This document shows, in pieces, positions 4,425-54,162 of a stretch of 64,000 nucleotides of DNA. Position 1 is the first letter of the stretch, and each line of letters opens with the position of its first letter. The notes beneath the pieces are model-generated. The model was given only the letters and a program-made list of their open reading frames with translations, had not been told where the DNA came from and made no database searches. The position numbers and the translations under genes are program-made. Source of the DNA: a virus (Duplodnaviria; Caudoviricetes); the IMG/VR virus record IMGVR_UViG_3300037183_000082, positions 1 to 64,000 of that record; one strand, given 5' to 3'.

Positions 4425-5117
4425 TCACGCCACCGCACGACGGCGGAAACCGTCGAGGAAGAGACGGCACACGAGGCGCGCGTCCGTTTGCAGGTTGAGG
4501 CCCGCGACCTCGCCCTTGTTGAAGCTGAGCGCGACCTTGAAGGCCTCGCCGCCTGCGACGTAGAGCGGGCTCGCCAACGCGCGCACGCCCTCGGTGCTGG
4601 TCGAGCCGTTGTAGGCGACCGCCGTGCCCGTGGCGCCGTCCGACACGCGTGTCAGACCGCCCGAGTACACGTGCTGGACACCCGCGGCGCCCGGCCAGTA
4701 CGACAGCGGGCTCTGGGTGTAGTTCTTGACCGCCGCGATCGACAGCTCGATGAGCGTGTCGCGCTGCAGACGAAGCATGTCGGGCAGCGGGACCTCAGGC
4801 TGGTCCGGGTCGGGGAACGCGTTCGGGTCCAGGGCAAGGCCCTGCTTGAACACGTCGATCGCGAGGTAGTGAATCGCGATCTCCTCGTTCTCCGGGAGCT
4901 TCGAGCCCTCGCCCTGCAGGTTGGTGTCGATGGCGGTGGCCATGCGCGGCCCGACGCTGCCCGGCACCACGTCGCCTGACGTGTAGCTGAACGCGTTGAG
5001 GGTCGTGATAGGTCCCGCCGCGACCTCGACCGTGGACCAGAGAGGGACGGCAGACGTCCACTCGCCGGGAACCACGACCATGCCATTCGGTAGACGCATT
5101 TTGCGAATCTGTGCCAT
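4425..5117 (-). CDS. putative major capsid protein, single jelly-roll type, paralog 2
   Basis: N-term QIRKMRLPNG-VVVPGEW-SAVPLWST; C-term RLFLDGFRRRAVA. Confidence 0.65.
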   Translation of the reverse strand: MAQIRKMRLPNGMVVVPGEWTSAVPLWSTVEVAAGPITTLNAFSYTSGDVVPGSVGPRMATAIDTNLQGEGSKLPENEEIAIHYLAIDVFKQGLALDPNAFPDPDQPEVPLPDMLRLQRDTLIELSIAAVKNYTQSPLSYWPGAAGVQHVYSGGLTRVSDGATGTAVAYNGSTSTEGVRALASPLYVAGGEAFKVALSFNKGEVAGLNLQTDARLVCRLFLDGFRRRAVA

Positions 5118-22767: not shown

Positions 22768-24435
22768 ATGACATCGCTGCGTTACCGTCTCGCGTCCAGC
22801 GCACGCTGGGCCTCGCTTATTTGGAGCGAGGAGCGGGGCCACTCCCAAGAGTTTCTTTTGGCGTGCGCAGCGGCACTTCCCATCCCCGGGGTGCGTGAGC
22901 ACCCAAAGGCGATCGATGTTCCCGTAACGGCTTTCATGCTGCCGGAAGTACATCGGTTGTTTGCGGCAGCTCGGGTCGACATCCCTACCCCACGTTCGGA
23001 TGTCGACCCGGGCAAGCTGTGGTCACCACAGCAAAAGCCCTTTGATCACCAAGTGGAAGGTGCGCGCTTCATCGTGAACGCGGGCTCTGCACTTGTCTGC
23101 GACGAAATGGGAGTCGGTAAGACTCGCACTGCGATTCAGGCTGCGCAGTCTGCTCGACTTAGCTGGGGCGGACCTGCTGTCATTGTTGCACCCAAGTTCA
23201 CCCGCGCGACTTGGTTGCGCGAGCTGCTCGCGACAGGCGCCATCGAAAACCCCACCCAGTTCTGCGCGCTCGAATCGCGCGACCTCGGAGATAGCTCGTT
23301 TCGCGCCGGCTGCCACTACTACTTCGTGCACTACGACGTCGTTTCGACGTGGTGGACACGCCTGCAGTCGTCTGAGCGCCCGACGGTGACCATCGTCGAT
23401 GAGGCGCACTGGATCAAGAACGGCCGGGCCAAGCGATCCAAGGGCGCAGATCTCGCAACTGCCGGCACTCACATGCGGATTTTGCTCACGGGCACGCCGC
23501 TCGTGAACAGCCCTGCAGACCTCTGGTACCCGCTTCAATGCGTCACAGGAGCATCCACTTGGGGCAGTCCGCTCGACTTCAGGGTTCGCTACAACGGTGC
23601 GATACGTACGTCGTATGGTCATAAGGACCTAGGGCCAACCTACACGAACGAGCTGCGTCTGCGCATGGCGCCTTGGTACCTGCGCCGCACGACTGAACAG
23701 GCCGGCCTGCAGCTCCCTGCGCTCACGCGCACCGCAGTCGAGTGTGAGATGTCGCGCGCGCTTGCTCGCGAGCACAGCGGCATTCTCGGCAAGGTCGATC
23801 CGGCAGCCATCGTCACCGCGATCTTGGAAAACCGGATGGGGACCGAGACGCTCAAGATGCTCAATCGGCTGCGCCAGATCACGTCCGCGGCCAAGCTCGG
23901 CGACACCGCCGAGTACGTGAGCAACATCCTCGACCAGGGCGACGCCGCGGTGGTGTTCGTCTGGCAGCCCGAAACCGCCCGCAAGCTTCGCGCGCGCATG
24001 GCCGAGCCTGACGCGCACGCTGAAATCACAGGTGACCAGGACCAAGGCACGCGCGACGCGTTGATCGCAGCGTTCCAGGCCGGCGCGGGGCCCGCCGCTC
24101 TGTTCTGCACCTACGGCACCGTGCGCGAGGGTGTGACGCTGCATCGCGCGCGCCATGTTGTGCACCACGACCTCGACTGGACAGCCGTCACCATCCAGCA
24201 GGCTGAAAAGCGCATTCACCGCATCGGCCAGAACCGCGCTTGCACAGCCACTTGGATGGTCGCGCGCAACTCGATGGACACCATTTTCGCGGAGGTTCTG
24301 CGCGCCAAGCTCGACGCCGCACAGCAGGTGTTCGGCGACGCGAACCCCTTCGAGGCATCTCTCGACACGATTTCGGTCGGCATGTCCCTGCAGGACAAGA
24401 TGCGCGCCGCGATCGAGGAATGGCGGGCGTGGTGA
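22768..24435 (+). CDS. SNF2-family (SF2) helicase
   Basis: DEMGVGKT (I), DEAH (II), LTGTP (III), REGVTL (V), QAEKRIHRIGQ (VI). Confidence 0.92.
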   Translation: MTSLRYRLASSARWASLIWSEERGHSQEFLLACAAALPIPGVREHPKAIDVPVTAFMLPEVHRLFAAARVDIPTPRSDVDPGKLWSPQQKPFDHQVEGARFIVNAGSALVCDEMGVGKTRTAIQAAQSARLSWGGPAVIVAPKFTRATWLRELLATGAIENPTQFCALESRDLGDSSFRAGCHYYFVHYDVVSTWWTRLQSSERPTVTIVDEAHWIKNGRAKRSKGADLATAGTHMRILLTGTPLVNSPADLWYPLQCVTGASTWGSPLDFRVRYNGAIRTSYGHKDLGPTYTNELRLRMAPWYLRRTTEQAGLQLPALTRTAVECEMSRALAREHSGILGKVDPAAIVTAILENRMGTETLKMLNRLRQITSAAKLGDTAEYVSNILDQGDAAVVFVWQPETARKLRARMAEPDAHAEITGDQDQGTRDALIAAFQAGAGPAALFCTYGTVREGVTLHRARHVVHHDLDWTAVTIQQAEKRIHRIGQNRACTATWMVARNSMDTIFAEVLRAKLDAAQQVFGDANPFEASLDTISVGMSLQDKMRAAIEEWRAW

Positions 24436-25451
24436 TCCTCGACATCCTATACGACCCGATGCCCGCTGCGAAGCGCCCGACCGAGCGGCGTGCGCTAGGC
24501 GAGGTCGGCATTCCGAACGAGGGGGCCTCGCCCACGGGCAGCTCGTTCTACAAGACGTTGCTCGCGTGCCCGCGGGAGTTTGCGCTCGCGCACGTCGAGG
24601 GCATCCGGCCTGTGATCGAGCGCGACGAGCTGTCGATCGGGATCATCTTCCACCACGCGCTCATGGTGTACTACCGCGCGATCTACGAGCACCAACAGCG
24701 GTGCAAACCGGCCACGCGCTGTCCTGTCGGCAATGAAAAGCTAGCGCCCGAGTGGCAGCACTTCTTCTGGGGCAACCAGCGCGAGGCTGGCCAGGCTGCG
24801 TTTGCGTCCGTGCTGCAGCTCGCAGCAGAGCCTGGCTACACGGAGATCTACGAGACCGTCGAGCGCTGCCTTGAAGCCTATTTCGAGACCTATTGGCGCA
24901 CCGACCGCTGGATTGTCGTCGCGGTCGAGGAGACGATCATTCGCAACGGGTTGCCGACGCCATGGAGCGCACGCCTCGATCTATTCATCCACGACATGAA
25001 AGACGACGGCCTGTGGATCTGCGAGCACAAGACCGCGAAGTTCATCAACGCCGACCTCATCGACAACTATGAGATGGACATTCAGATCCTCGGCCAAAAG
25101 TGGCTCGTGCAGCGTTGTGTTGATCTCACCGCGTACCCGCACTTCAAGGGCGTGCTCATCAACATCGTGAGCAAGGCGAAAACACCCAAGCTCGTGCGCA
25201 CCCAGGTAAGCCCGAGCCCCGCGCACCTGCGCGAGTTCGAGAACACGCTCGCGAGCCTTCCCGTGCAGCGCAAGGTCTATGAGCGCCTCGGTTGGCCGAA
25301 GTTCCTCGGCCACTGCTCGGGCTACGCGCGCGGCTACTCGCGGTGTCAATTCTATTCGCTTTGCCATGACTACCCGGAAGTCACGCCCGCGCAGTGGCGC
25401 GGCTTCGATTTGCCGGAGGAGTTTGAACGTAAGGAGGTTGCTGTGCCCTAG
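24432..25451 (+). CDS. PD-(D/E)XK nuclease, Cas4/RecB-like
   Basis: AVEE..ARLDL..CEHKT catalytic motifs, QILG motif, N-terminal Cys (CPRE) plus C-terminal C-x9-C-x5-C. Confidence 0.8.
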   Translation: MILDILYDPMPAAKRPTERRALGEVGIPNEGASPTGSSFYKTLLACPREFALAHVEGIRPVIERDELSIGIIFHHALMVYYRAIYEHQQRCKPATRCPVGNEKLAPEWQHFFWGNQREAGQAAFASVLQLAAEPGYTEIYETVERCLEAYFETYWRTDRWIVVAVEETIIRNGLPTPWSARLDLFIHDMKDDGLWICEHKTAKFINADLIDNYEMDIQILGQKWLVQRCVDLTAYPHFKGVLINIVSKAKTPKLVRTQVSPSPAHLREFENTLASLPVQRKVYERLGWPKFLGHCSGYARGYSRCQFYSLCHDYPEVTPAQWRGFDLPEEFERKEVAVP

Positions 25452-25501
25452 TGCTTTGTACGGCACGGTTTTGCGCCGCACGGTACTGCACCGTCAGGTA
25501 G
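25452..25501 (+). repeat. period-5 NGY-NN tract 1 (10 units), candidate guide RNA
   Basis: tgctt tgtac ggcac ggttt tgcgc cgcac ggtac tgcac cgtca ggtag; 10 of 10 fit NGY. Confidence 0.85.
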
Positions 25502-25529
25502 AAAGATGGATTCAAAAAGTTTCTGCCGC

Positions 25530-25635
25530 GGTTCTGTCAATCGTGGTTCGGTAGCGTGGGGTTCTGTGGAGTTAGTTTATGCAGCGTGATGTCTCCTAGC
25601 GTCATGTTTGGCTCGGTTCGGCTCTAGTTCGGTTC
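25530..25635 (+). repeat. period-5 NGY-NN tract 2 (21 units, one 1-nt slip), candidate guide RNA
   Basis: ggttc tgtca atcgt ggttc ggtag cgtgg ggttc tgtgg agtta gttta tgcag cgtga tgtct cctag cgtca tgttt ggctc ggttc ggctc (t) agttc ggttc; 18 of 21 NGY, 21 of 21 Y at position 3. Confidence 0.85.
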
Positions 25636-25663
25636 GACAAGACGAAGAAAAGGGTGGTTTTCA

Positions 25664-26332
25664 ATGCAAAGAACAAGAATCAGTTTCGAGGGTGTGAGTC
25701 CGCTTCTACAGAATCGGATGTCAGAGGAACAGCTCATGGCGCTCTTTACGAAAGAGCCGAGCACGCGGCGCAAGTTCGAGGCGCCCAAGGACATTCGCGA
25801 GACGGCGCGAAGCAAAGTACACATGACCGAGGCAGGACTGCCCTACGTTCCGGCAGAGATGTTCATGTCGTGCTGCATCATCGCAGGTCGCTTTATCAAA
25901 CTCGACGGCAAGCGGCAGATGTCGACAGCTAACTCGACGCTCCTGCCCGGCTTTCTCTCAGTCGAAGAGACGTTCTTCTACCTCGTGGACCCGCGACAGG
26001 GCGGCCCGGCCGAGTGGGCAACAGCTACGCAAACAGCCCCGGCGCAGCCAAAACACCCAGCTGAGTGGGAATCCGACATTCGACGTGGTGTGAGCAACAA
26101 CGCAGGTGGAAGCGCCGTTGCCATCGTACGCCCCCGCTTTGATCGCTGGGGTTTCACGGTGACGTGCATGCTCGACACCGATCAGCTCAGTGAAGCAACT
26201 TTCCGCGAGCTGTTCGATATTGCTGGCTCGCGCGTCGGGATCGGCGACTTCCGTCCGATGCGCAAAGGCATTTACGGTCGTTTCAAGGTCACAGGCTGGC
26301 AGCGCATGGACGAGCTGAAGTCCGCATCATGA
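25664..26332 (+). CDS. stand-alone RAMP / Cas7-like RNA-binding protein
   Basis: RAMP-like motifs: first strand ISFEGVSPLLQN, PYVPAE, thumb-like ..VAIVRPRF, C-terminal Gly-rich loop GSRVGIGDFRPMRKGIYGRFKV. Confidence 0.75.
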   Translation: MQRTRISFEGVSPLLQNRMSEEQLMALFTKEPSTRRKFEAPKDIRETARSKVHMTEAGLPYVPAEMFMSCCIIAGRFIKLDGKRQMSTANSTLLPGFLSVEETFFYLVDPRQGGPAEWATATQTAPAQPKHPAEWESDIRRGVSNNAGGSAVAIVRPRFDRWGFTVTCMLDTDQLSEATFRELFDIAGSRVGIGDFRPMRKGIYGRFKVTGWQRMDELKSAS

Positions 26333-29590: not shown

Positions 29591-29988
29591 CACCCGTCCA
29601 ACTTGAGAGCCCTTACGCAGGCCACGTCCATCGCAACAAGGCCTACCTACAGCTCTGCATCCGCGATTGCTTTGAGCGCGGCGAGGCGCCATTCGCGTCG
29701 CACCAGCTCTATGTGGATGCGCTCGACGACGACATCGCGATCGAGCGAAAGCAGGGCATCGAAGCGGGCTTGATCTGGGGCAAGTTCGCCGAACGTACGG
29801 TGGTCTACACAGACTTCGGGATTTCGAGTGGCATGAAGCACGGAATCCTTGCGGCCGAGAAGCTTCGACGCCCGTGCATTTTTCGCACGCTGAAAGACTT
29901 CGACCGCGTCACGTTCTACACGGCGACTGACGAGCTGCAAGAGACAGACTGGCACGAGCTGCTCACACGCTGCCGGAGCGTGCGATGA
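29587..29988 (+). CDS. phage protein with ESPY motif (nucleoside deoxyribosyltransferase-like fold)
   Basis: LESPYAG..GEAPFASH..VVYTDFGISSGM. Confidence 0.7.
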   Translation: MTPVQLESPYAGHVHRNKAYLQLCIRDCFERGEAPFASHQLYVDALDDDIAIERKQGIEAGLIWGKFAERTVVYTDFGISSGMKHGILAAEKLRRPCIFRTLKDFDRVTFYTATDELQETDWHELLTRCRSVR

Positions 29989-32900
29989 GCCCGAACCGCC
30001 CGACGCGTTTTCCGATCTACACCGAGGCGCACGCCAACTGCAGCAAGTGCGAGCTGCAACCAGCCTGCGAGGACGGCAAGGTCGTACAGGCCTACCAGCC
30101 GGCCAGCGACGCGCCTTTCAACGGTATCATGATCGTGGGCGAGGGTCCCGGGCATCACGAGGTCATCCAGGGCCGCCCGTTCGTGGGACCTTCCGGGCGC
30201 TTGCTCCGTGCGATTCTCAAGTCGCTCGGGGCTGATCTCGACGCTTGCTACATCACCAACGCAACGTTGTGCCGACCGCCTATCACGGCATCGGATGACA
30301 AACGCTCGTTCATGCAGAAGTTCCCCCGCGCGGTGCACAGCTGCCTGCCGCGCCTGGAGCTTGAGATCACTGCTGTCCGCCCGCGCGTGATCCTCGCGCT
30401 CGGGGCACAAGCCCTGGCTGCGCTCACGGGCTACGAGGAGCACTACACGAAGCTTCTGCCCGCGCCGCCGTGCGAGACGTGTAAGGGCGGCCATGTGCTG
30501 AAAGACGGTGGGGAGACGCCGCGCAGGGTGGTCGGCGTGCAGTGCTCCAAAGGTGAGTGCAAGCACCGCATTCTCTTGCCGCCCCAGTTCGAGGGAAAGA
30601 AGGTCAAAGGGCTCGATCTGCCCGATATCCTGCCCACGGATTGCCCCAAGTGCGGCGCGACCTTGCAGCGGCTCACGGTGCGACAGATCCCGTGCCCGAC
30701 CTGCGGCGGCCTCAAGCGCGTCGAGACGCCACTTGTGAACTTTCGGTGGGACTACCAGCTCGGCGAGGTCGCAGGGGCTGTCATCGATGCGAGCAAGCAC
30801 GGGTGGGAGACGTGTGGCGTGCGGTACGTGATCGCGACCTACCACCCCTCGTTCTTGCTTCGACCTCCGCCCAGCTCAGGCACGGGCGAGGACAAGGCCA
30901 TGGGCGGCCAGTACGCGGCGCCTTGCGTTCAGAAGCACATGAAAAAGTCGCTGCGTCTACTCACCGAGGACGCGGACTGGTCCACAGGTTTTGAGGTCAC
31001 AGACGAGTCGGACCACACAGACGCTGCGGCGCACTTGCTCGACTACATCTACGGCGACCCGGCAGTCACCGAGTTCACATGCGATATCGAGAGCGAGGGC
31101 TGGGGCTCCGAATACGTCTGCCAGGTGTGCGAGACGAAGTCTGGGATCATCCGCACCGCACCACCGACCGAGCTGTCCGCCGAGCTGCACCATTGCGAGA
31201 CGTGCACAACCGCCGCGAACGCAGTTTTGCGGGCGGAGAACAAGGAAGAAACGGGCCCGCTGTTCACGCAGCACGTGCCGATCGTAAAAGAGCTGGACGC
31301 CCGCAAGATCGCCGAGGTGTCGAAGATCAAGATCCTGGGGTTCGCGAGCCGTAAGCGTGGCTATTCGTTGGTCACAGACACGCGCACGCTCGACCCTGAC
31401 AATACAAGCGACCCGCTCTATCAGGCCATCGTCAAGGTGCTCACCGACACGACCTTGCGCATCTGCTTTCACCACGGCAACTACGACGTGCCGGCGCTGT
31501 ACAAGCTCTGGGGCATTGAGGTCAAGAACTACACAGACGACACGCTGATCCTGCACCACGATCTGTACCCGGACGAAAAGCACTCGCTGTCGCACGTCGC
31601 ATTCGAGTTTACCGATGTCCACGCGTGGAAGCCGCCCAAGAAACTTCACAACCGACTCGCGCACGAGTCGTTCGAGGAAGAGTGCGCGTACAACGCACGC
31701 GACACGATGCTCACGGACGACTCGCTCCAACAGATGAAGCTCAAGCTTGCCCCGAAGCACCTCGATAAGGTCTACGCCATCGACATGCAGCTGCAGCAGC
31801 AGGCTGTTGAGATGTGGCGCAACGGGATGTACGTCGACAAAGACAACGCCATCCGCATCGGCCAGGAGGCAGTCGACCGCGAGCTACGCCTGCAAGCCGA
31901 AATGCGCAAGCTGCTCAAGTGGGACAACTTCAACCCGCGTTCTGCCACGCAGCTGGCTGAGGCGCTGTTCGATCGCTTTGGCTACACGCCCTCGAAGATG
32001 ACTGAGGGTGGCGCGCGCTCGACCGCGAAAGAGGTCGTGCTGCGGCTCACAGACAGCCCCTTTAAGCGCCTCGTGCTCGACCACAAGGATGCCGTGGCCA
32101 CGCTGGCTAACTTCTTCGAGGTGGTAGACAACCGCGCCTACCCGGGGCGCAGCCTGCGCATCTGGAACGACCAGCGCATCCGCGCGACGTGGAAAGCGTA
32201 CGGCGCACGCACGGGGCGTTTCTCGTCCAATCCCAACTTTCAAAACTGGAAGGCGTGGCTCAAGGCACTCGTGACCTGCGCGCCAGGCCGCAAGATCGTG
32301 GGTGCCGATTACGACCAGCTGGAGCTGCGCATTCTTGCTGCCCTGAGCGGTGATCCTGTGCTCATGGAAAAGTGTCTGAACGCCGACGAGAACGACAAGC
32401 TCAACCCGGACAAGGACCCGCACAGCTACGTGGCGTTTTTCGCGTTCGGCAAGCTGTTCACGGATCTAGACAAGAACGACCCGGCGCACGACAAAAAGAA
32501 CGAGCGCTGCAAGTGCCAGAAGTGCGAGCGCAAGGCCCTGCGCGATATCTGCAAGCGTGTGATCTACGGCATGAACTACGGCGCGGGCGACGAGACCGTG
32601 CTCGAAGCCATCTATTCAGGCGGGTACAACGGCCCGCCCATCTCGCTCGACATGATCGGCCGCGTCCGCAAGGCCATCTACACCGCGTTCAGTGGGATCA
32701 AGGCCTACCAGGAAAAGCTCTACACCGACGCCGTCAAGAACAAGGCGATCTTTTCGCCGCTGCTCGGCCGCCGTCGGATCTTCCCGCTCGGCGATGTGCC
32801 GTTCACCGAGATCCTCAACTTCCCAATCCAGTGTCTTACCGGCGCGACGCGCGTTCTCACTGATCGCGGCTACCAGACGCTCGAAAGTCTCAACGCGCTC

Positions 32901-34259
32901 ACGCAAGCACATACGGGCAGCGAACAGGTGCAAGCACGGGTGCTCTCGAAGGGCGCGGAGCAAGTTTGGCGTGTGACGCTAGACAACGGGCAGCAAATCG
33001 AAACGAACGAGGGTCACTATTTGCTCGGCACGAACGGCTGGCTCGCGACGGGTGAGCTGCAGCCTGACACACTGATCGCGCAACCACTTGCACGAGAGCA
33101 GCCAACGCGCCGTGACATGACGGCAGGTTTCGGGCGGGACCCGGACACGTTCTACTGGCTCGGCTACTACGTCGGCAACGGTTCTTGGGATACCGACGAT
33201 GCGATCAAATTCGCGTTCGGTTCGCGTGTGAAGCGGCAACACCATAGTGAATACGCCACCAAGTTCCTGGAGTGGGCGCGCTTGCACGAGCTTGCACCGC
33301 AAAAGCCGCAGATCGAGCTAAACCTTACTTGCGTGACGTTGCAGAACCACGCGGCGCGCGAACTGTTCACAAGTCTCGGCGTTATGCCCGGGGCTGGCGC
33401 GCATCAAAAGCGGCTTCCGGAAGCTGCGTGGGCGGGCTCGATTGCGGAGCGCAAAGCCTTCTTGGTCGGGCTGCTCGATGCCGACGGTTCGCTTGCGACA
33501 GACCCGCCCAACATCACGTTGTGCAACCGCGCTTTGCTTCAGGACGTGCAGCTCCTACTGCGGACGGTCGGGATTCCGAGCCGCCTGTACGGGCCCTATG
33601 TCGCGGATCGTGCGGGTCACCTGGCGTGGCGTCTCACGATTCCAGGGACGCTGCTCACACGACTCGGGTACGGGCAAGCGCAGCGTGTGCGGTACCCGAA
33701 TGACGTGTCACTGGATCCGACCTCTATTGCGGAGTTTCTGGATACGTTCCCCAAGAATCCGTTCAGTTTTTCGACACAGCAAAGCATGTACATGCTCTGG
33801 CGGCGGATCTCAGAGGGTGGTTTCACGAACCCCCACACGCTTTTACGCATGTGGGAGGCGCTCGACGCAACACCGACCCAACCGATTTACGCTTTCCATG
33901 CGGTGCGCAGCGTCGAGCGTTTGGATCGCGCGGCGCCGATGTTCACGCTTCACGTTGACCACCCACTCCATCGTTACGACAGCGCTGGCGTGATCAGCAA
34001 AAACTCAGGCGGCGCAGACATCATGAACCAGCGCAATCTTATCTTCGGTGGCGAGGTGCGCAGCATCGATCCCACTGCGATGTACATCGCCCAGGTGCAC
34101 GACGCCGTCTACTACGAAGTCGACGAGCAGCGCGCGCCCCAGGTCGCAGACCGTATGACCGAGGTCCTCACCTGGGATACCGCGATGTACGAAGGCGGCC
34201 CCGTGATGCACTTCAGTGCGCAGGCGTCCATTGGCGACACCTGGAAGGCGGCAGCATGA
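29985..34259 (+). CDS. family A DNA polymerase with N-terminal uracil-DNA glycosylase domain, 3'-5' exonuclease and an intein
   Basis: UDG-4 motifs GEGPG/PFVGPSG/YHPS; exonuclease DIESE, DDT; polymerase RTGRFSS, DYDQLELR, KRVIYGMNYG, NFPIQ-SGGAD, QVHD. Confidence 0.93.
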   Translation: MSPNRPTRFPIYTEAHANCSKCELQPACEDGKVVQAYQPASDAPFNGIMIVGEGPGHHEVIQGRPFVGPSGRLLRAILKSLGADLDACYITNATLCRPPITASDDKRSFMQKFPRAVHSCLPRLELEITAVRPRVILALGAQALAALTGYEEHYTKLLPAPPCETCKGGHVLKDGGETPRRVVGVQCSKGECKHRILLPPQFEGKKVKGLDLPDILPTDCPKCGATLQRLTVRQIPCPTCGGLKRVETPLVNFRWDYQLGEVAGAVIDASKHGWETCGVRYVIATYHPSFLLRPPPSSGTGEDKAMGGQYAAPCVQKHMKKSLRLLTEDADWSTGFEVTDESDHTDAAAHLLDYIYGDPAVTEFTCDIESEGWGSEYVCQVCETKSGIIRTAPPTELSAELHHCETCTTAANAVLRAENKEETGPLFTQHVPIVKELDARKIAEVSKIKILGFASRKRGYSLVTDTRTLDPDNTSDPLYQAIVKVLTDTTLRICFHHGNYDVPALYKLWGIEVKNYTDDTLILHHDLYPDEKHSLSHVAFEFTDVHAWKPPKKLHNRLAHESFEEECAYNARDTMLTDDSLQQMKLKLAPKHLDKVYAIDMQLQQQAVEMWRNGMYVDKDNAIRIGQEAVDRELRLQAEMRKLLKWDNFNPRSATQLAEALFDRFGYTPSKMTEGGARSTAKEVVLRLTDSPFKRLVLDHKDAVATLANFFEVVDNRAYPGRSLRIWNDQRIRATWKAYGARTGRFSSNPNFQNWKAWLKALVTCAPGRKIVGADYDQLELRILAALSGDPVLMEKCLNADENDKLNPDKDPHSYVAFFAFGKLFTDLDKNDPAHDKKNERCKCQKCERKALRDICKRVIYGMNYGAGDETVLEAIYSGGYNGPPISLDMIGRVRKAIYTAFSGIKAYQEKLYTDAVKNKAIFSPLLGRRRIFPLGDVPFTEILNFPIQCLTGATRVLTDRGYQTLESLNALTQAHTGSEQVQARVLSKGAEQVWRVTLDNGQQIETNEGHYLLGTNGWLATGELQPDTLIAQPLAREQPTRRDMTAGFGRDPDTFYWLGYYVGNGSWDTDDAIKFAFGSRVKRQHHSEYATKFLEWARLHELAPQKPQIELNLTCVTLQNHAARELFTSLGVMPGAGAHQKRLPEAAWAGSIAERKAFLVGLLDADGSLATDPPNITLCNRALLQDVQLLLRTVGIPSRLYGPYVADRAGHLAWRLTIPGTLLTRLGYGQAQRVRYPNDVSLDPTSIAEFLDTFPKNPFSFSTQQSMYMLWRRISEGGFTNPHTLLRMWEALDATPTQPIYAFHAVRSVERLDRAAPMFTLHVDHPLHRYDSAGVISKNSGGADIMNQRNLIFGGEVRSIDPTAMYIAQVHDAVYYEVDEQRAPQVADRMTEVLTWDTAMYEGGPVMHFSAQASIGDTWKAAA
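32832..34004 (+). mobile_element. intein (391 aa) with LAGLIDADG homing endonuclease
   Basis: Starts CLTGATRV, has block B IETNEGH, LGYYVGNG and GLLDADG motifs, ends SKN before Ser; removal restores NFPIQ-SGGAD. Confidence 0.9.
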
Positions 34260-53832: not shown

Positions 53833-54162
53833 TCAGGCCTGCGCGCAGGCGTCGAGGATCGAGATGCGCGTCGAGAGTGCCGTGGCCTTGTCCGCATCCG
53901 ACATCGTTGCGATTGCAGCGTCGCTCGGGTAGCCCTGGGCGCTGAGACACGCACTGAAGCGCTGCGCTGTCTTCTGCTGCGCAGCGTTGCGCCACAGCAC
54001 GAACGCGAGCGCTGCGACGAGCCCGCCACCGAGGCCGACAGCGGTCCCCACCAAGTGGTTCTTGCGCTTGCCGATCGTGAGCCCCGCGAGGCCACCCCCG
54101 GCGACGAGCATGGTGGGCACGAGGTAGGGGACGATGGGGCTCGGCATGTTCGTGGTGACCAT
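53833..54162 (-). CDS. two-TM membrane protein
   Basis: Hydrophobic hairpin around KRKNH; leaderless promoter at 54170. Confidence 0.65.
   Translation of the reverse strand: MVTTNMPSPIVPYLVPTMLVAGGGLAGLTIGKRKNHLVGTAVGLGGGLVAALAFVLWRNAAQQKTAQRFSACLSAQGYPSDAAIATMSDADKATALSTRISILDACAQA

Follow-up and report, generated by a model that had tools for sequence, protein, structure and literature searches.

The stretch of DNA analysed here, hereafter the window, comprises the first 64 kb (64,000 nucleotides, nt) of an 80,634-bp IMG/VR virus record (IMGVR_UViG_3300037183_000082), rated complete and carrying 127-bp direct terminal repeats. Within it, the open reading frame (ORF) of a PD-(D/E)XK nuclease stops at position 25451, and an ORF of 222 amino acids (aa), here called vipr, runs from its ATG at 25664 to 26332, leaving a gap of 212 nt between the two. 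The original prediction, made from the bare sequence, had placed these elements correctly, and had proposed that the ORF encodes a RAMP/Cas7-like protein that works with repeat RNAs from the gap. The locus is very probably a VIPR (Viral Interference Programmable Repeat) system carried by a phage and composed of the vipr gene and two upstream genes for VIPR guide RNAs (vrRNAs), and as such is a further instance of the kind of system described in 2026 rather than a new kind. Its features are as follows; repeat units are written xGY-NN, where x is the first base, Y a pyrimidine and NN the two variable bases.

25452..25501, plus strand: candidate vrRNA 1 tract; 10/10 perfect xGY-NN units, beginning right after the nuclease stop codon
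25502..25529, plus strand: linker of 28 nt between the tracts; A/T-rich, with the pentamer phase shifted by 3
25530..25624, plus strand: candidate vrRNA 2 tract; 19 pentamers, of which 16/19 fit xGY-NN, phase displaced by 3 nt from that of tract 1
25625..25663, plus strand: pre-vipr stretch; decayed pentamers, then purine-rich AAGGGTGG, 6 nt before the ATG
25664..26332, plus strand: vipr; 222 aa, single-RRM RAMP (Cas7-like)

VIPR has been described in three 2026 preprints (10.64898/2026.04.26.720920, 10.64898/2026.04.26.720927, 10.64898/2026.10.15.759431), and the mention of such a phage system in the original prediction, offered there as unverified, was accurate. It is a CRISPR-related RNA-guided DNA silencer (bioRxiv 10.64898/2026.04.26.720920), the protein of which branches before the CRISPR RAMPs and has been proposed as the RAMP ancestor. 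A vrRNA consists of 9–16 GGY-NN units and ends in a tail. Double-stranded DNA is read by the NN pairs, one base being skipped for each unit, and the system silences transcription, its targets being prophages, satellites and rival VIPR systems (VIPR preprints, 10.64898/2026.04.26.720920 et al.). One protomer occupies each repeat and holds its G, G and Y in a flipped-out position, and a thumb-bundle pocket receives the skipped base of the target (10.64898/2026.04.26.720927). Seven types have been distinguished and six accessory (vap) genes described, implying one type without vap (10.64898/2026.04.26.720920). VIPR, in which a protein of ~20 kDa and a repeat RNA read DNA by a gapped code, is a very recent addition to RNA-guided biology. 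The present locus is an independent example of it, found in an 80-kb phage of high GC content that has direct terminal repeats.

The Vipr protein and the repeat tracts

When the 222-aa protein was compared as a single sequence with the entire PDB (phmmer), the only match was the Vipr protein of Escherichia phage SUSP1 (36pp_D, E 4.5e-4); a 35-sequence profile matched the same chain with E 2.2e-7, residues 4–192 being aligned to residues 4–190 of 202. An AlphaFold model was obtained with a predicted local distance difference test score (pLDDT) of 89.3 and a predicted template modelling score (pTM) of 0.86, and its top structural matches were all Cas7-type RAMPs (Foldseek, E down to 3e-6). As modelled, the protein has the Cas7 fold, and the RAMP/Cas7-like call of the original prediction is upheld both by structure and by sequence homology to SUSP1 Vipr. 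No family was assigned to the ORF by Pfam or NCBIfam, PHROGs returned only family 4652, of unknown function, and no tblastn match was found among INPHARED phages.

The C-terminal Gly-rich loop to which attention had been drawn, GIGDFRPxxKGxYGRF, does read so, as G-I-G-D-F-R-P-M-R-K-G-I-Y-G-R-F at G192–F207. The thumb hairpin spans ~136–159 and is preceded by an insertion of ~20 aa (~113–133) that is missing from all 34 aligned homologues. Residues by which SUSP1 Vipr contacts its RNA could be mapped by profile alignment: R138 and W178, the contacts of the second guanine, correspond to R156 and F196 here (the aromatic being kept), E71, M72 and R179, which hold the pyrimidine, to E65, M66 and R197, and D177 to D195. 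The only exception among the mapped contact residues is H17, the first-guanine contact, which is N17 here. In an alignment of 35 homologues R156, D195, F196 and R197 were invariant and N17 was at least 90% conserved, and each of these five residues was retained in 68–74 of the 74 loci with tracts. The gene callers of two public assemblies start vipr at Met25 (25736), yielding 198 aa from which the first β-strand, with N17, has been lost; since that strand is conserved (G10, P13, L15, N17; pLDDT 96), the real start is 25664, not Met25.

Autocorrelation within the gap peaked at lags of 5, 10, 15, 20, 25 and 30 (0.31–0.42, compared with ~0.2–0.3 elsewhere). The period-5 score was 0.110, as against −0.0003 ± 0.014 in 2000 shuffles (z 7.6), which is the highest among all 212-nt segments of the 64 kb, and such a period is incompatible with coding. 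The in-phase pentamers in which position 2 is G and position 3 a pyrimidine, first pointed out in the original prediction, were recovered as two tracts with run scores of 10 (tract 1) and 11.5 (tract 2); in 100 shuffles of the 80.6-kb genome, scored on both strands, the maximum averaged 6.4, with a 95th percentile of 7.5 and a top value of 8.0. The repeat strand is unambiguous, and the same as that of the gene, because 18/26 fitting units are xGT. The number of units had been put at 31, 12 of them GGY; these counts are to be corrected to 29 scored and 11 GGY, while the accompanying remark that the first base is degenerate holds good, position 1 being G at a frequency of 0.42, followed by T and then C, with A rare.

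The NN pairs of tract 1 read TT AC AC TT GC AC AC AC CA AG. Units 3, 10 and 14 of tract 2 depart from the consensus, and the tract may represent two guides rather than one, comprising units 1–10 (ending TA TA) and units 11–19 (ending TC TC TC). The linker may supply the 3′ tail of vrRNA 1, the start signals of vrRNA 2 or both, and the purine-rich AAGGGTGG is likely the ribosome-binding site of vipr. The gap held no Rfam match and no hammerhead, nor were hammerheads found in 18 related loci.

Two further period-5 signals were seen in the window. On the minus strand, nine consecutive xGY-NN pentamers at 4937–4981 scored 9, above the shuffle maximum; they lie inside a minus-strand ORF (4425–5117), and the composition of GC-rich coding DNA may account for them. 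The second-highest period-5 autocorrelation of the window (0.079) came from ~53880–54150, where a short run of xGC-GC-like pentamers at ~53955–53995 scored 4.5 by hand count, under the threshold of the caller; this is probably a repetitive GC-rich coding motif.

Linkage of gene and repeats, and the target code, across the family

Homologous loci were taken from IMG/VR, where 80 were fetched (28–50% identity), of which 73 had usable flanks and were analysed. The period-5 signal in these 73 loci was flat save for ~500 nt upstream and ~600 nt downstream of vipr, where it rose up to ~20-fold. Plus-strand xGY-NN tracts lay within these flanking zones in 69/73 loci, amounting to 4161 units compared with 179 elsewhere on the same strand. 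The 5-nt autocorrelation for which the original prediction had recommended searching the surroundings of homologues is, then, found beside nearly all of them. Across the family, position 2 of the unit was G (0.97), position 3 was C or T (0.99) and positions 4–5 were near-uniform; position 1 was G at 0.57, T at 0.22, C at 0.11 and A at 0.10. In close relatives the upstream tract ends ~20–35 nt before the vipr start codon, as it does in the window, and most of these relatives also have downstream arrays. The 3′ tails in relatives were locus-specific.

In the Vipr family the first repeat base can be fully degenerate while the contact residues stay the same. Replacement of H17 by N17 was considered as the cause of the degeneracy and was rejected, N17 being near-constant over the 74 loci (the 73 relatives and the window), whereas the frequency of G as the first base varied between loci from 0.03 to 1.0. 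A doubtful proposal, which we hold to be unlikely, is that the first base is a third informative position in this Vipr clade. It might be a lineage-specific ‘address’ by which, in a co-infection, the guides of one VIPR system are kept from being loaded by another or, alternatively, it might join in the reading of the target, making a code of three, not two, bases per unit. It belongs to the same proposal, and is equally doubtful, that the clade, even though its contact residues are invariant, would hold each repeat through its G-Y pair only, with the first base free.

All tracts of the vipr loci were decoded, and 2.9 Mb of DNA was searched on both strands for perfect 8-unit NN matches with 0, 1 or 2 skipped bases. 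Allowing one skipped base gave 29 such matches, no skip gave 2 and two skips gave 0; the 29 represent 10 independent events, compared with ~1.4 expected by chance. A 17-unit guide downstream of vipr in locus L005 (L005:4706–4790) matched L002:5191–5232 / L003:3088–3129 over 14 consecutive units (28/28 bases), in frame, with the wobble position as the skipped base. The codons matched, E-D-N-P-C-V-V-I-P-T-A-G-G-K, are those of the Walker A region of a ResIII/DEAD helicase; the terminal two GGCAA units of the guide were unpaired, and the helicase orthologue of L005 itself differs at the matched site. To judge from the sequences, it is beyond doubt that this is a natural inter-phage VIPR target. 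Moreover, a guide in L061 (L061:4576–4635) gave an 8-unit perfect NNx match in the vipr genes of L055, L059, L063, L065, L066 and L067 (minus strand), so that guides aimed at the vipr genes of relatives, published for other VIPR clades, appear here too. Close relatives would thus aim their guides both at Walker A codons of a rival phage helicase and at the vipr genes of rivals.

Since the Vipr proteins of L002/L003 (50% identity) and L005 (48%) are close to that of the window, the clade, as judged by these matches, uses the published code with its 1-nt skip. These matches and the VIPR literature lend support to the model advanced in the original prediction, in which the xGY triplets are bound by protein and the NN pairs read a target non-contiguously.

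A second L005 guide (in the tract at L005:4575) matched the window itself at 33378–33400, within the ORF at 29985–34259, over 8 units, in frame and with the skip at the wobble position. The match does not extend (21/42 bases), both sequences are GC-rich, and it is probably due to chance.

It had also been suggested that the concatenated NN pairs be used to find targets; none was found for the guides of this phage, with the limitation that the large collections were searched with exact patterns only, to which diverged targets are invisible, so that the negative is weak. The full 10-unit pattern of tract 1 had 0 exact matches in IMG/VR and 0 in metagenome contigs, and units 1–9 of tract 2 had 0 matches. 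Seeds of 8 units (tract 1 units 2–9; tract 2 units 4–11 and 12–19) matched 35, 14 and 13 loci respectively, near chance, and a 9-unit seed matched 19 loci in metagenomes; in neither case did any match extend. The 35 matches to the tract 1 seed formed 14 unrelated groups, in mixed frames and mostly in Thr- or Gly-rich low-complexity stretches. When 83 vipr loci and the genome of the phage itself were searched locally with mismatches tolerated, the best match was 15–16/20 bases whichever skip rule was applied. No self-target was detected in that genome, where the best match (15/20 bases) was equalled under wrong skip rules, in agreement with the published lack of self-targeting by vrRNAs (VIPR preprints).

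Relation to known systems and alternative explanations

Of the described systems, that of the window invites comparison with type II VIPR, as found in Escherichia phage SUSP1 and a Pseudomonas fulva prophage. Both have a small single-RRM RAMP of ~200 aa, homologous over its full length, in which the residues that hold G2 and Y3 in SUSP1 are kept here; both have same-strand pentamer guides adjoining the gene, one of them upstream; and both are encoded by phages and lack a CRISPR array and cas genes (here Cas1, Pfam RAMPs and Cas3-HD were searched). The 1-nt-skip, wobble-skipping code is likewise found in relatives of the window's clade. On the other hand, the first repeat base is degenerate here (G 0.42) and N17 takes the place of H17, guides occur only upstream of vipr, with no downstream array, no conserved partner resembling vap1 was found, and neither the conserved pseudoknot in which SUSP1 vrRNAs end (VIPR preprints) nor any shared 3′ tail was detected. 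Sequence identity to SUSP1 Vipr is low, and the ~20-aa insertion before the thumb is a further difference.

Degeneracy of the repeat is not without precedent. For loci lacking strict YNNGG, the alternative consensuses NNNGG, YNNNG and NNNNG have been used, internal degeneracy being frequent (methods, 10.64898/2026.04.26.720920), and in the register of those authors xGY-NN becomes Y-NN-x-G, or YNNNG. The main text of 10.64898/2026.04.26.720920 does not name which of the seven types uses YNNNG. The fit of the degenerate first base to this variant lowers the likelihood of membership in the type II/SUSP1 subtype, and not that of membership in VIPR overall.

The resemblance to class 1 CRISPR-Cas is more distant. 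Identity to the Cas7 RAMPs of that class (Csm3 of type III-A, Cmr4, type VII Cas7) was 10–18%, and the Pfam RAMPs model gave no match. The step of VIPR is 5 nt, not 6, with three guide bases flipped out per step, not one (10.64898/2026.04.26.720927). The original prediction had stated that CRISPR components were absent. This is confirmed in so far as the phage genome held no CRISPR array (Tandem Repeats Finder, direct-repeat search) and Cas1, Pfam RAMPs and Cas3-HD had 0 matches in the whole 80.6 kb, so that the protein was found with no array, Cas6, Cas5, large subunit or adaptation genes, cas families other than Cas1, Pfam RAMPs and Cas3-HD not having been searched for individually.

Assignment of the locus to VIPR follows from the homology of its protein to a solved Vipr, the Cas7 fold, the retained RNA-contact residues, the statistical reality of the tracts, the linkage of gene and tracts across the family and the 1-nt-skip code in a close relative. 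Several results weigh against it. GGY accounted for only 11/29 scored units, so that the strict GG[C/T]NN scaffold is not seen, and a tract caller demanding it (as in 10.64898/2026.10.15.759431) would likely miss these guides. Three of the 19 units of tract 2 are off consensus, and part of that tract may have decayed. Neither a sigma-70-like promoter nor a terminator was predicted in the gap, the 3′ flanks of the two tracts (two copies only) had no significant similarity, and the gap region folded no better than shuffles (z −0.9). Finally, no neighbouring gene that could serve as a vap gene was conserved across the 73 homologous loci. For annotation, it should be borne in mind that the truncation at Met25 by automatic callers removes the first β-strand, and that strict GGY callers would overlook the guides.

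Some of the same results would suit a different account of the tracts, in which vipr is a real homologue but the repeats are the cis-regulatory 5′ leader of its mRNA, to which Vipr would bind so as to autoregulate its translation, or are decaying former guides. Only 39 nt separate tract 2 from the start codon, and the likely ribosome-binding site is overlapped by the decayed end of the tract; three of its 19 units are off consensus, no separate promoter or terminator was predicted, and the searches described above yielded no target for either tract. However, close relatives share an upstream tract abutting the start codon and carry downstream arrays along with it, and guides from those downstream arrays match foreign genes. 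In SUSP1, moreover, the one vrRNA that lies upstream of the genes is expressed and bound (VIPR preprints), and the ten units of tract 1 are all perfect and their NN pairs diverse, contrary to the expectation for a decaying remnant. We therefore regard a leader or relict guides as improbable.

More improbable again is a destructive form of VIPR, in which the SNF2 helicase encoded at 22768–24435 and the PD-(D/E)XK nuclease would be effectors recruited to the filament, as proposed for types III–V. Some VIPR types do have accessory genes for predicted nucleases or helicases (10.64898/2026.04.26.720920), and here the nuclease gene ends one base before tract 1, with the SNF2 gene just upstream and all on one strand. 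Nevertheless, SNF2 was present in 0/73 homologous loci and a PD-(D/E)XK nuclease in 1/73, where it lay 1.7 kb downstream and in another order; the nuclease-linked types in the literature show enrichment in the defence islands of cells rather than in phages (10.64898/2026.04.26.720920); and no neighbour is kept across the family, these genes belonging to an ordinary replication/recombination module. As vap partners the helicase and nuclease were accordingly rejected, since they are not conserved with vipr. That the tracts are a DNA-level element unrelated to the ORF, such as iterons or a replication origin, or a product of chance composition, might be suggested by their position within a replication gene cluster and by the T-rich, C-poor gap, yet it can be set aside as exceedingly improbable, given that tracts follow vipr into unrelated neighbourhoods in 69/73 loci, are scarce elsewhere in those loci and are always on the strand of the gene, and that chance is excluded by the shuffles.

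The VIPR interpretation being preferred, we infer expression of the tracts, their binding by this protein and the nature of their targets by homology to SUSP1. The tracts would be transcribed on the plus strand, and Vipr protomers would bind one per pentamer to form a helical filament, each protomer sequestering the G-Y (positions 2–3) of its unit, the first base being under weak constraint in this locus. Both variable bases would stay exposed in every unit, and the concatenated NN pairs would read double-stranded DNA as NNx NNx ..., the skip usually falling at the wobble position of a codon. Once bound, the filament would keep a gene of some competitor sharing the host, be it a phage, a satellite or a prophage, from being transcribed.

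Gene neighbourhood and wider distribution

Around vipr, in addition to the helicase and nuclease, are genes for a Sak4-like ATPase, a DUF669 protein resembling single-stranded DNA-binding protein (SSB) and a fusion of uracil-DNA glycosylase and PolA (UDG-PolA), which together make up a replication and recombination module of a kind ordinary in phages. The stop codon of vipr is overlapped by the Sak4-like gene, which leaves no room for a downstream array in the window. The SNF2 helicase, the nuclease, the Sak4-like ATPase and the DUF669 protein do not accompany vipr in the family and, since no neighbouring gene is kept, the functional unit is the vipr gene with its repeats, inserted into that module. 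The family can thus exist as a bare cassette of vipr and guides within a replication module.

The phage genome has a GC content of 63.5%, relative to which the gap at 25452–25663 is T-rich and C-poor, and no tRNAs were found in it. The same phage was present in two other public samples (SRR11594338 and IMG 3300037226) at 99.9–100% identity, and no further contigs with this protein were found, so that there was no near-identical relative with other NN pairs from which hypervariability of the guides could be read. The closest Vipr homologue in a cellular genome came from a metagenome-assembled genome (MAG) of Planctomycetaceae (48% identity), and others were found in Patescibacteria and Gammaproteobacteria MAGs.

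Among the homologous loci, one subclade (L018, L020, L022–L024, L026–L029) carries a conserved plus-strand ORF of ~590 aa, ~360 nt downstream of vipr and after the downstream guides, which has no counterpart in the window and could be a clade-specific accessory gene. Just upstream of a distant vipr, at L015:3552–3752, Rfam identified C4 antisense RNA (71 bits) and isrK (53 bits), which are regulatory RNAs of the P1/P7 phage-immunity type. The UDG-PolA fusion of the window, a 1424-aa ORF at 29985–34259, combines a family-4 uracil-DNA glycosylase domain with a DNA polymerase I domain, and its residues ~945–1222, in the C-terminal part, match replicative helicases as well as intein-containing proteins, pointing to an intein or to an additional fused domain.

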